In this document: piece by piece, positions 16,111 to 62,550 of the stretch
Position numbering within the stretch: position 1 is the first letter of the stretch
How the letters are laid out: each line of letters opens with the position of its first letter
Source: Escherichia coli
GTDB lineage: Bacteria; Pseudomonadota; Gammaproteobacteria; Enterobacterales; Enterobacteriaceae
DNA length: 64,000 bases
NCBI RefSeq assembly: GCF_030384885.1
Contig: NZ_CP128613.1
Strand: one strand, 5' to 3'
Notes under the pieces: generated by a model
What the model was told of the DNA's origin: nothing
The model's database searches: none
Seen by the model: the letters and a program-made list of their open reading frames with translations, nothing else
Translations under genes and position numbers: made by a program

Positions 16111-16225
16111 AAGATAAAAAGTATTCAGAATCAGGCCGGGGCGTCTCGCGCTCCGTAAACACGGTCGTACATCCAGCCGGTAGCCTGGTTCCTTGCATTG
16201 AGTGATGTACGGAGTTTATAGAGCA

Positions 16226-22824: not shown

Positions 22825-23601
22825 ATGTCCGAAACAAAAAACGAACTTGAAGACCTGCTGGAAAAAGCAGCAACCGAACCGGCGCACCGCCCGGCCTTTT
22901 TCCGTACTCTACTGGAATCCACTGTCTGGGTACCAGGTACGGCGGCGCAGGGCGAGGCAGTGGCTGAAGATAGCGCGCTTGATTTACAGCACTGGGAAAA
23001 AGAAGACGGTACCAGCGTCATTCCTTTTTTCACCTCGTTAGAAGCACTGAAACAGGCGGTTGAAGACGAACAGGCGTTTGTCGTAATGCCCGTTCGCACA
23101 CTGTTTGAGATGACCCTTGGCGAAACGCTCTTCCTTAATGCCAAATTGCCAACCGGTAAAGAGTTTATGCCGCGTGAAATCAGTTTGTTGATTGGTGAAG
23201 AAGGAAATCCGCTGAGTAGTCAGGAAGTACTGGAAGGCGGTGAATCGCTGATATTATCGGAAGTCGCAGAGCCGCCAGCGCAAATGATTGATTCACTCAC
23301 CACCTTATTTAAAACCATTAAGCCGGTGAAGCGTGCTTTTATTTGTTCAATTAAAGAGAACGAAGAGGCACAGCCTAATTTACTTATTGGTATTGAAGCC
23401 GATGGCGATATCGAAGAAATTATTCAGGCGGCGGGAAGTGTAGCGACCGATACATTACCTGGTGATGAACCAATAGATATTTGCCAGGTGAAAAAAGGGG
23501 AAAAAGGAATTAGCCACTTTATTACCGAACATATTGCGCCATTCTATGAACGTCGCTGGGGTGGATTCCTGCGTGATTTTAAACAGAATCGAATAATTTA
23601 A
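22825..23601 (+). CDS. sseB: Rhodanese-enhancing protein SseB
   Basis: 258 aa from ATG 22825 (MSETKNELEDLL...); the track ORF starts 3 codons earlier at GTG. Confidence 0.8.
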   Translation: MSETKNELEDLLEKAATEPAHRPAFFRTLLESTVWVPGTAAQGEAVAEDSALDLQHWEKEDGTSVIPFFTSLEALKQAVEDEQAFVVMPVRTLFEMTLGETLFLNAKLPTGKEFMPREISLLIGEEGNPLSSQEVLEGGESLILSEVAEPPAQMIDSLTTLFKTIKPVKRAFICSIKENEEAQPNLLIGIEADGDIEEIIQAAGSVATDTLPGDEPIDICQVKKGEKGISHFITEHIAPFYERRWGGFLRDFKQNRII

Positions 23602-23603
23602 AA

Positions 23604-23628
23604 TATGCCGCCCCAAAGGGCGGCATTC
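23604..23628 (-). terminator. Hairpin terminator at 3' end of minus-strand ryfA transcript (also follows sseB)
   Basis: gccgcccc-aaa-gggcggc stem-loop; U-rich tract follows on the minus-strand RNA. Confidence 0.5.
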
Positions 23629-23905
23629 GGGCTTACTTGCTGTTCTGAAGGTTGTTAACCATCAGTAAATTGTTGCCGGAGGGACTCCGGTTATTATTTA
23701 CTTCGGAAAACAGCGCACCAGAAACAATAAGTACGATACAGAAGTACCGTATCTTCATTGTGCGGTCCATGCGAAGACCGCATCACGACAGCACCACTGG
23801 CGATATTGCCGCGATAGCAAGCGCTGTGGGGTGCCTGCATTTACGGTCATGGAACATCCTTTCCTAAAGCCAGCGCCCGTTTGCGAGACGGCGAAAAGGG
23901 CCGTC
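23625..23905 (-). ncRNA. ryfA: ryfA small RNA / mRNA of small toxic protein (boundaries approximate)
   Basis: Conserved sseB-sseA spacer of about 500 bp; K-12 ryfA maps between sseA and sseB; contains a minus-strand small hydrophobic ORF and ends at hairpin 23606-23623; 5' end not determinable from sequence. Confidence 0.5.
23632..23769 (-). CDS. Small hydrophobic protein, type I toxin-like (TimP-like), inside ryfA
   Basis: My own minus-strand translation: MDRTMKIRYFCIVLIVSGALFSEVNNNRSPSGNNLLMVNNLQNSK (45 codons; alternative start at second Met gives 41 aa); single predicted TM/signal-like segment; below the 60-aa cutoff of the ORF track; weak SD. Confidence 0.4.
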
Positions 23906-58391: not shown

Positions 58392-59446
<1,055 letters not shown>

Positions 59447-59488
59447 TTACTTGCGGTAGAAAAATAAAATTCGGCGCAATTCTAACAG

Positions 59489-59508
59489 GGAAAGCAAACG
59501 TTTGCGAG
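59489..59508. promoter_or_regulatory. PurR operator (pur box) upstream of purMN
   Basis: aaagcaaacgtttgcgag contains the palindromic GCAAACGTTTGC core of the PurR consensus. Confidence 0.55.
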
Positions 59509-59704
59509 ACTGCTTTACACAACCTTTTTGTACGTCTTTTCCCCAGGCGCGCGGCAAAAGAATACTTGTACCAGGGCAAAGGATCGTTTTCGGATGGAAT
59601 AATCTTCTTCCATAACCATTTGAATATAAAATAACTTTATCTCAAACCGTTATCATTTTGACTAAAGTCAACGAAAATAATATTGCCGCCTTGAAGAAAG
59701 GAGG

Positions 59705-59726
59705 TATAATCCGTCGATTTTTTTTG
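59705..59726 (+). promoter_or_regulatory. upp promoter -10 (TATAAT) with T8 reiterative-transcription tract in the initially transcribed region
   Basis: tataatccgtcGATTTTTTTTG 27 bp upstream of upp ATG; UTP-sensitive start-site selection is described for upp. Confidence 0.6.
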
Positions 59727-59752
59727 TGGCTGCCCCTCAAAGGAGAAAGAGT

Positions 59753-60379
59753 ATGAAGATCGTGGAAGTCAAACACCCACTCGTCAAACACAAGCTGGGA
59801 CTGATGCGTGAGCAAGATATCAGCACCAAGCGCTTTCGCGAACTCGCTTCCGAAGTGGGTAGCCTGCTGACTTACGAAGCGACCGCCGACCTCGAAACGG
59901 AAAAAGTAACTATCGAAGGCTGGAACGGCCCGGTAGAAATCGACCAGATCAAAGGTAAGAAAATTACCGTGGTGCCAATTTTACGTGCCGGTCTGGGGAT
60001 GATGGACGGTGTGCTGGAAAACGTTCCGAGCGCGCGCATCAGCGTCGTCGGTATGTACCGTAATGAAGAAACGCTGGAGCCGGTACCGTACTTCCAGAAA
60101 CTGGTTTCTAACATTGATGAGCGTATGGCGCTGATCGTTGACCCAATGCTGGCAACCGGTGGTTCCGTTATCGCGACCATCGACCTGCTGAAAAAAGCGG
60201 GCTGCAGCAGCATCAAAGTTCTGGTGCTGGTAGCTGCGCCAGAAGGTATCGCAGCGCTGGAAAAAGCGCACCCGGACGTCGAACTGTATACTGCATCGAT
60301 TGACCAGGGACTGAACGAGCACGGATACATTATTCCGGGCCTCGGCGATGCCGGTGACAAAATCTTTGGTACGAAATAA
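59753..60379 (+). CDS. upp: Uracil phosphoribosyltransferase
   Basis: 208 aa from ATG 59753 ([14 protein letters not shown]...), AGGAGA RBS. Confidence 0.95.
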
Positions 60380-60394
60380 AGAATAAAAAAAATT

Positions 60395-60425
60395 AAAGCC
60401 GACTTTAAGAGTCGGCTTTTTTTTG
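60395..60425 (+). terminator. Hairpin + T-run between upp and uraA (terminator/attenuator)
   Basis: aaagccgactttaagagtcggcttttttttg. Confidence 0.65.
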
Positions 60426-60464: not shown

Positions 60465-61754
60465 ATGACGCGCCGTGCTATCGGGGTGAGTGAAAGACCG
60501 CCACTTTTACAGACAATCCCGCTTAGTTTGCAACATTTGTTCGCCATGTTTGGTGCAACCGTCCTGGTGCCCGTCTTATTTCATATTAACCCGGCGACTG
60601 TACTGTTATTTAACGGTATAGGAACGCTGCTGTATCTCTTCATCTGTAAAGGGAAAATCCCGGCTTATCTTGGTTCCAGCTTTGCCTTTATTTCACCGGT
60701 ATTGTTACTGTTGCCGTTAGGGTATGAAGTCGCGCTGGGCGGCTTTATTATGTGCGGCGTGCTGTTCTGCCTGGTTTCTTTTATCGTGAAGAAAGCGGGG
60801 ACTGGCTGGCTGGACGTGCTGTTTCCGCCAGCGGCAATGGGCGCAATCGTTGCCGTCATCGGTCTGGAACTGGCGGGCGTAGCTGCCGGTATGGCGGGGT
60901 TACTCCCGGCTGAAGGGCAAACTCCAGACTCCAAAACCATCATCATCTCTATTACCACCCTGGCAGTCACGGTTTTAGGTTCCGTGCTGTTTCGTGGTTT
61001 CCTGGCAATTATCCCAATTTTAATTGGTGTGCTGGTAGGGTATGCGCTCTCTTTCGCAATGGGGATTGTCGATACCACCCCGATTATTAACGCCCACTGG
61101 TTTGCGCTGCCAACTCTCTATACGCCGCGCTTCGAGTGGTTTGCCATTCTGACTATTCTGCCAGCGGCGCTGGTGGTCATTGCCGAGCACGTAGGGCATC
61201 TGGTAGTAACGGCTAATATCGTCAAAAAAGATCTGCTACGCGATCCGGGTCTGCACCGTTCGATGTTCGCTAACGGCTTGTCGACTGTGATCTCCGGCTT
61301 CTTTGGCTCCACGCCAAACACCACCTACGGGGAAAACATTGGCGTTATGGCGATCACCCGCGTTTACAGTACCTGGGTTATCGGTGGGGCGGCGATTTTC
61401 GCTATCCTGCTTTCCTGTGTCGGTAAATTGGCTGCCGCTATCCAGATGATCCCGCTGCCGGTGATGGGCGGCGTTTCGTTGCTGCTTTATGGTGTTATCG
61501 GTGCTTCCGGTATTCGTGTTTTGATCGAATCGAAAGTGGATTACAACAAAGCACAGAACCTGATCCTGACTTCCGTGATTTTGATCATCGGTGTCAGTGG
61601 CGCGAAGGTAAACATCGGCGCGGCGGAGCTGAAAGGTATGGCGCTGGCGACCATCGTCGGTATCGGCTTAAGTTTGATCTTCAAACTGATTAGTGTGCTG
61701 CGCCCTGAAGAAGTGGTGCTGGACGCAGAAGACGCGGATATAACAGACAAATAA
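60465..61754 (+). CDS. uraA: Uracil:H+ symporter
   Basis: 429 aa from ATG 60465 ([16 protein letters not shown]...); NCS2 family. Confidence 0.95.
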
Positions 61755-61848
61755 TGTACCGACCGGGCAGTGTTGCTGCCCGGTTCAAACATCATGGGAT
61801 TCTGTGGTAAACTTCTCGCGATTTTGTGAAATCCTGGTTGAGGTATCT

Positions 61849-62550
61849 CTGAACACACCGGCACAGCTCTCTTTGCCACTTTATCTTCCTGACGACGAAA
61901 CCTTTGCAAGTTTCTGGCCGGGGGATAACTCCTCTTTACTGGCCGCGCTGCAAAACGTGCTGCGTCAGGAACATAGCGGTTACATCTATCTCTGGGCACG
62001 CGAAGGCGCGGGGCGCAGCCATCTGCTGCACGCGGCTTGCGCGGAATTGTCGCAGCGTGGCGATGCGGTGGGCTATGTCCCGCTGGATAAACGCACCTGG
62101 TTTGTTCCGGAAGTGCTCGACGGTATGGAGCATTTGTCGCTGGTCTGTATCGACAACATTGAGTGTATTGCAGGCGATGAGTTGTGGGAGATGGCGATTT
62201 TCGATCTCTACAATCGAATTCTGGAATCGGGTAAAACACGGTTGTTGATCACCGGCGATCGTCCACCGCGGCAGTTGAATCTGGGATTACCGGATCTCGC
62301 GTCGCGTCTCGACTGGGGGCAGATCTACAAATTGCAGCCACTTTCTGATGAAGATAAGTTGCAGGCGCTACAGTTACGCGCGCGTTTGCGTGGTTTTGAA
62401 CTGCCGGAAGATGTGGGGCGTTTCTTGCTGAAGCGGCTCGACAGAGAAATGCGCACGTTATTTATGACGTTGGATCAGTTGGATCGTGCGTCGATTACCG
62501 CGCAACGTAAGCTGACCATTCCGTTTGTGAAAGAGATTCTGAAACTGTAG
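61849..62550 (+). CDS. hda: DnaA-inactivating AAA+ protein Hda (non-AUG CUG start)
   Basis: Track ORF 61804..62550 (248 aa); the recalled mature Hda N-terminus ([21 protein letters not shown]) begins at CTG 61849. Confidence 0.8.

Follow-up and report, generated by a model that had tools for sequence, protein, structure and literature searches.

The T-rich promoter element ahead of upp in the window (the whole 64,000-nucleotide stretch of Escherichia coli DNA analysed here) is, almost certainly, the E. coli upp-uraA promoter, at which UTP-sensitive switching between start sites and non-productive reiterative transcription are expected to set the expression of uracil salvage genes. The initial annotation had placed a T8 tract ahead of upp-uraA within 59705-59755; this placement is exact, the interval begins at the -10 hexamer and ends with the start codon, and the sequence cited there is letter-perfect in the window. 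It had further proposed that the arrangement allows start switching and T-run slippage in response to UTP. Since the window holds the very locus at which the mechanism was established, this reading is supported, both by identity to the experimentally characterised promoter and by conservation. The device is already known, to the point of being textbook material, and the element in the window is the known system itself rather than a relative of it.

Anatomy of the promoter and its identity to the K-12 element

The promoter, its leader and the two genes of the operon are arranged as follows:

59658-59671, unstranded: FNR-type inverted repeat TTGACTAAAGTCAA, compared with the consensus TTGAT-N4-ATCAA; a predicted accessory input
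59683-59688, plus strand: -35 hexamer TTGCCG from the promoter scan, with a 16-bp spacer to TATAAT
59705-59710, plus strand: -10 hexamer TATAAT, a perfect consensus, read from the sequence and found in the promoter scan
59711-59715, plus strand: discriminator CCGTC, 5 nt, G+C-rich, which puts the starts at positions 6 and 7 past the -10 hexamer
59716 and 59717, plus strand: alternative start nucleotides G6 and A7, the bases as read from the sequence, the start role as taken from the literature and background knowledge
59718-59725, plus strand: T8 tract on the non-template strand, read from the sequence as the putative slippage site for UMP reiteration
59726-59752, plus strand: remainder of the 37-nt leader, from the first non-T residue (G59726), with the Shine-Dalgarno sequence AAGGAG at 59740-59745
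59753-60379, plus strand: upp, uracil phosphoribosyltransferase, 208 aa (NCBIfam), with its ATG at 59753-59755
60395-60419, unstranded: upp/uraA intergenic hairpin AAAGCCGACT...AGTCGGCTTT, flanked by A8 (60385-60392) and T8 (60417-60424)
60465-61754, plus strand: uraA, uracil permease, second gene of the operon (NCBIfam NF007995, RefSeq annotation)

In a consensus promoter scan of positions 59300-59900, the combination TTGCCG/16 bp/TATAAT was the sole sigma-70-like site, with 10 of 12 matches. A purine start window followed by a T tract lies 6-8 nt past its -10 hexamer. The T8 at 59718-59725 also conforms to the upp/codBA class, in which a T tract of at least 3 nt begins at +2 or +3. The adjacent G59716 and A59717 are candidate starts that would differ in their second NTP (pppGpA versus pppApU). 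The distance from G59716 to the upp ATG at 59753 is 37 nt, and uraA is located further downstream.

The promoter precedes a pyrimidine metabolism operon, upp and uraA, as identified by NCBIfam equivalog models and RefSeq. The upp product matches NF001097 over its full length (303 bits) and TIGR01091 (299 bits), and UraA matches NF007995 with 814 bits; the uraA coordinates agree with the RefSeq annotation of a near-identical strain. Upstream is the divergent purM-purN pair and downstream of upp-uraA is hda. Of 5426 complete E. coli genomes, 5425 match a 1-kb stretch at the site, which is annotated purM/upp in every case.

Of 5422 complete E. coli genomes, 4941 carry the 65-mer that covers the promoter and leader (59696-59760) with 100% identity, among them K-12 BW25113, O157:H7, CFT073 and O104:H4. 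A published primer for the deletion of upp in BW25113 contains an exact copy of GGTATAATCCGTCGATTTTTTTTGTGGCTGCCCCTCAAAGGAGAAAGAGT and covers the 50 nt that run from GGTATAAT to the base preceding the ATG (PMC11200800). The initially transcribed region of upp-uraA has been printed as 5'-GATTTTTTTTG (PMC7039003), and the same region in the window is equal to this published sequence, its G and A being the sixth and seventh bases past TATAAT. According to the same source, the pyrBI, codBA and upp-uraA promoters produce long reiterative RNAs with no return to canonical transcription (PMC7039003). Switching of the transcription start site at codBA and upp is stimulated by excess UTP (PMC12709180). 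PMC7039003 cites Tu & Turnbough 1997 (PMC179593) and Cheng, Dylla & Turnbough 2001 (PMC94869). From the literature on the identical K-12 sequence, the use of two start sites, the dependence of this choice on UTP and the AUUUUn ladders, which are non-productive, would carry over to the window.

The placement of G and A in the window, 6 and 7 nt past the -10 hexamer, agrees with the established numbering of the start sites. Tu and Turnbough and Cheng and colleagues reportedly call these sites G6 and A7, numbering them from the -10 region. High UTP is said to favour the start at A7, the AUUUUn products of which are aborted; low UTP reportedly favours G6, and the transcripts are elongated. Reduction of the upp T tract from 7 to 3 is also said, in the 2001 work of Cheng and colleagues, to have weakened regulation progressively.

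The sensor would be protein-free and built into the promoter, with RNA polymerase at TATAAT starting at either G59716 or A59717. Since a start at A59717 requires UTP as the second nucleotide and a start at G59716 requires ATP, the UTP concentration would bias the choice, high UTP favouring A59717 and low UTP leaving G59716 dominant. A nascent AUUU... transcript, held to the template by weak U:A pairs only, could slip backward on the T8 tract, and repeated addition of UMP would yield AUUUUn products that are released without reaching upp. Transcripts begun at G6 would mostly escape slippage and be elongated through upp-uraA, such that the capacity for uracil salvage would be high only under pyrimidine limitation. 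Given the sequence and what is generally known of transcription chemistry, slippage of an all-U:A hybrid should be easy where eight template bases in a row are identical. Why A7 transcripts should slip more than G6 transcripts is accounted for partly by inference and partly by background knowledge.

The window contains three runs of at least eight T residues, where a first-order model predicts about 1.7, and taken alone the T8 run is unremarkable. The intergenic hairpin is flanked by the two remaining long runs, A8 at 60385-60392 and T8 at 60417-60424. The pattern as a whole, TATAAT-N5-GATTTTTTT, is seen a single time in the window, compared to 0.01 expected from dinucleotide-preserving shuffles with one mismatch allowed, and chance is no explanation for the combined promoter/T-run arrangement.

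Several other features of the locus and of the window can be described. The terminator scan picks up the upp/uraA intergenic hairpin as an intrinsic terminator in both orientations (two sites versus 0.1 expected), and this terminator-like hairpin separates upp and uraA despite their description as a single operon. A near-palindrome, AAGCAAACGTTTGCGA, is located at 59492-59507, between purM and upp and not far from the start of purM. It resembles the PurR operator consensus, ACGCAAACGTTTGCGT, and is presumably the purMN operator. The hda gene is intact in the window (61804-62550; full-length match to the Hda model, 476 bits); in the best-matching strain, 2013C-4282, it is annotated as “frameshifted”, with an indel relative to the window near window position 61924, and the window therefore does not correspond to exactly that assembly. 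Elsewhere in the window, Rfam matches correspond to the ryfA sRNA (23600-23904, minus strand), the iscRS stability element (16115-16224, plus strand) and the sroE sRNA (36753-36844, plus strand), all of which are expected E. coli features.

Conservation across Enterobacterales and tract length within E. coli

The upp loci of other species were gathered with one genome per species, using a degenerate form of the upp N-terminus, MKIVEVKHP, as an anchor independent of the leader sequence; at least 121 loci were obtained. A search pattern that allowed four or more T residues yielded TATAAT-N5-N-N-T(6-9) upstream of upp in 94 of the at least 121 loci. Among the matches listed, all 94 of the 94 free-living Enterobacterales upp loci carry the device. 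The genera include Escherichia, Citrobacter, Enterobacter, Klebsiella, Kluyvera, Serratia, Yersinia, Pantoea and Erwinia, as well as Dickeya, Pectobacterium, Proteus, Providencia, Photorhabdus, Xenorhabdus, Edwardsiella, Hafnia and others. The other 27 of the at least 121 loci, in which the device is absent, belong to Orbaceae, Pasteurellaceae, Shewanella, Alkalimonas, two insect endosymbionts and a Pedobacter-labelled MAG.

Among the matches listed, the spacer past the -10 hexamer is 5 nt long in each of the 94 device loci, with sequences such as CCCGC, CCGGC, CTCGC and CCGTC. G occupies position 6 in 93 of these 94 loci and A occupies position 7 in 90; both are present in 89. The tract itself is T7 in 47 loci, T8 in 35, T9 in 11 and T6 in one; T7 being the commonest state across the Enterobacterales among the matches listed, a run of exactly eight would not be required. 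In the alignment of 92 Enterobacterales promoters among the matches listed, TATAAT is invariant (2.0 bits per column). Column information remains at 1.0-2.0 bits from the spacer through GA and is 0.1-0.7 bits right after the T run, while the -35 block (TGGCGC/TTGCCG) shows moderate conservation across the species listed. Among the matches listed, the conserved unit is therefore the block formed by the -10 hexamer, spacer, GA and T run, not the leader RNA, as a device that acts at the level of the polymerase would predict.

Some species depart from the canonical G6/A7 pair. The type strain of Escherichia albertii, NBRC 107761 (locus L008, 1910 upstream), has T at position 6 (TATAATCCGTCTATTTTTTTTG). 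Three Photorhabdus loci have GG followed by T7, i.e., G at position 7. In Ca. Pantoea persica the G is followed directly by eight T residues, which amounts to T at position 7 plus T7 (TATAATCTCGCGTTTTTTTTAG). Since these few species lack either G6 or A7, the two-start-site logic cannot be identical everywhere. In three genera of the Pasteurellaceae (Necropsobacter, Bisgaardia and Avibacterium, one locus each), TAAAAT or TAGAAT is followed by 5 nt and GA, with only T3-T4 thereafter, e.g., TTTAAAATCTGACGATTTTATAAAA, and this arrangement could represent an abbreviated form of the device.

Other departures concern the layout of the leader. In Pectobacterium, TATAAT-CCCGC-GA-T7/8 is located about 111 nt ahead of the ATG, compared to the usual distance of about 37-45 nt, and the leader carries an inserted G+C-rich repeat or hairpin-like sequence. 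At the Brenneria locus the device block is about 172 nt upstream of the ATG (four Pectobacterium/Brenneria loci in all). The upp leaders of the Orbaceae (Gilliamella, Schmidhempelia and Zophobihabitans; ten loci with the stem) have no T run and contain instead an invariant 7-bp stem, CUCAGUG...CACUGAG. This stem begins a few nucleotides past a -10-like TAGAAT or TAACAT, and its 3' arm enters the GAGG Shine-Dalgarno sequence, a layout that recalls the start-site-dependent masking of the ribosome site of the pyrC type. Because the stem is invariant, a covariation test on it is uninformative.

Within E. coli, exact-match variant queries against 5422 complete genomes gave 4941 with T8, 440 with T7, 21 with T9 and 4 with T6. 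The T7 set includes the type strain ATCC 11775, the T9 set several O157:H7 strains, and the T6 genomes are pig isolates. About 9% of the complete genomes are non-identical over the 65-mer, and the sampled ones differ in tract length alone; substitutions were ruled out as the source of these sampled alleles, which are pure tract-length changes. When the 1.46-kb flanks were compared, the T7 strains M217 and 26561 matched BW25113 at every other position, while the T7 strains ATCC 11775 and MS7163 share a common B2-type haplotype near that of CFT073. The T9 strain O157 FRIK944 equals a T8 O157 strain apart from the tract. T7 was ruled out as the marker of a single lineage, given its presence on both K-12-like and B2-like haplotypes. 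Since T7 and T9 occur on different backgrounds, which apart from the tract do not differ from those of T8 strains, either the length changes would have arisen repeatedly, by recurrent slippage mutation, or homopolymer miscalls recur in the assemblies.

The device itself is identical in the window and in K-12; its flanks, the purM and intergenic sequences, differ by approximately 3%. Over the end of purM and the purM-upp intergenic region (58995-59695), the window shows 34-44 differences in about 1465 positions relative to K-12, B2 and O157 representatives, which differ among themselves at 0-29 of the same positions. Identity of at least 99% over 59400-60400 is found in only 375 of 5426 genomes. 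This pattern suggests that the window belongs to a less frequent lineage or that purM contains a recombinant segment.

Alternative readings of the T tract

The natural length variants bear on a reading in which the tract is a contingency site at the level of the DNA, where replication slippage among T6-T9 would heritably retune expression and the variation itself would be selected, either in addition to UTP sensing or in its place. It is favoured by the share of complete E. coli genomes, roughly 9%, that depart from T8 by tract length only, by the occurrence of T7 and T9 on unrelated haplotypes otherwise equal to those of T8 strains, and by the weakening of regulation with shorter tracts that Cheng and colleagues reportedly observed. 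Homopolymer miscalls in long-read assemblies, however, would look alike; the observed lengths, 7-9 and very rarely 6, all fall inside the functional range; and T8 is kept in 91% of the genomes. We consider this reading very unlikely. A related proposal starts from the recurrence of T7, T9 and T6 on unrelated E. coli backgrounds and from the alternation of T7 to T9 between Enterobacterales species; in it, tract length is a naturally variable “rheostat” and recurrent slippage would heritably retune the UTP-dependent shut-off of upp-uraA. This proposal is also unlikely; if true, it would matter for uracil scavenging or for sensitivity to 5-fluorouracil.

Two further readings would transfer the role of the tract to the leader RNA. 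The T8 could work in the full-length transcript, as a U-rich translational enhancer, as a binding site for S1 or Hfq, or within a fold that hides the Shine-Dalgarno sequence. The U8 is indeed located at the extreme 5' end of the 37-nt leader, and in the minimum free energy (MFE) fold it is base-paired to the start region, AUGAAGA. Nevertheless, the MFE of the leader RNA (59716-59775) is -7.5 kcal/mol versus a mean of -10.6 kcal/mol for shuffled sequences (z = +1.23), its centroid structure is unpaired, and the region has no match to an Rfam family. Moreover, the pairing partner of the U run is not conserved, while the distance of the T run from the -10 hexamer is fixed at N5+2 among the matches listed, a combination that fits a function at the level of the polymerase and leaves the RNA-level role extremely improbable. 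T runs are also typical of intrinsic terminators, and pyrimidine genes in Bacillus are subject to PyrR-dependent attenuation (PMC6524683), both of which count in favour of a conventional attenuator or riboswitch, with a terminator/antiterminator or PyrR-like target as in the pyr and upp leaders of Gram-positive bacteria. Yet the leader is merely 37 nt long and unstructured, and no upstream hairpin can be transcribed, since the T run begins 2 nt past the start site. The terminator scan found no terminator-like hairpin on either strand in 59300-59900, and an Rfam search of the whole window at gathering thresholds gave no match in the upp promoter/leader region; the upp leader thus shows neither the structured leader nor the curated RNA family by which this class is recognised. 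The attenuator or riboswitch is effectively refuted, its residual probability being negligible, and start switching with UMP reiteration at the promoter remains the preferred reading, which none of the observations contradicts.

The upstream FNR-type site and related pyrimidine promoters

The inverted repeat TTGACTAAAGTCAA is centred 51.5 bp upstream of G59716 and has two mismatches to TTGAT-N4-ATCAA. Among the matches listed, 66 of 90 Enterobacterales promoters have an FNR-type match (two mismatches or fewer) at exactly 51.5 or 52.5 bp from position 6, and many of the sites at this conserved position in the upp promoters listed are perfect. In shuffled 90-mers, an FNR-type site with no more than two mismatches occurs anywhere in the sequence in about 6% of cases. 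The site is absent from the Pantoea/Erwinia clade among the upp promoters listed. FNR usually activates from positions -41.5 and -61.5, and the spacing of the upp site (51.5/52.5) corresponds to neither. The putative site would be an accessory input to the promoter, situated outside the UTP device. The site matches an FNR ChIP peak that has been assigned to upp, with the description “activated by FNR in NO2-” (PMC3688515), and upp-uraA has been flagged as FNR-activated (PMC2634741). If FNR does act from -51.5 or -52.5, signals for oxygen and UTP would be combined at one promoter.

The closest comparison is the upp-uraA promoter of E. coli K-12 (Tu & Turnbough 1997, J Bacteriol 179:6665; Cheng et al. 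2001, J Bacteriol 183:221), which is the same locus with the same sequence. The codBA promoter of E. coli (Qi & Turnbough 1995) follows the same logic, i.e., start switching plus non-productive UMP reiteration on a T run, and like upp it controls pyrimidine salvage genes. It differs from upp in its shorter run (T6) and in its initially transcribed region, 5'-ATTTTTTG (PMC7039003); the gene pair, which encodes cytosine permease and deaminase, is not in the window.

The pyrBI promoter (5'-AATTTG; Liu, Heath & Turnbough 1994) and carAB P1 (5'-GTTTGC) share with upp the UTP-dependent reiteration on a T tract. They release AAUUUn or GUUUn transcripts, and are likewise cases of “repression without repressors”. 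They differ from upp in a tract of only T3 and in the lack of a start-site switch, because UTP acts directly on the choice between slippage and extension. They also control biosynthetic genes, as opposed to the salvage genes of upp, and pyrBI has an extra downstream attenuator. In B. subtilis, reiterative transcription at the start site of pyrG similarly senses a nucleotide pool, in this case CTP, on GGG. The pyrG reiteration is productive, in that the added G residues stay in the transcript and, at low CTP, give rise to an antiterminator, whereas the reiterated transcripts of upp are discarded.

The detection of the element in the window serves only to confirm the annotation of a known element. 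The additions made here are small and of modest use: the order-wide conservation with apparently invariant spacing, the T6-T9 length variation and the FNR-type site at a fixed distance. These additions show which parts are constrained and could guide annotation of the device in other Enterobacterales; they raise no new question. The upp device is a classic case of regulation that needs no regulator: RNA polymerase would itself read the UTP pool, by start choice and slippage.
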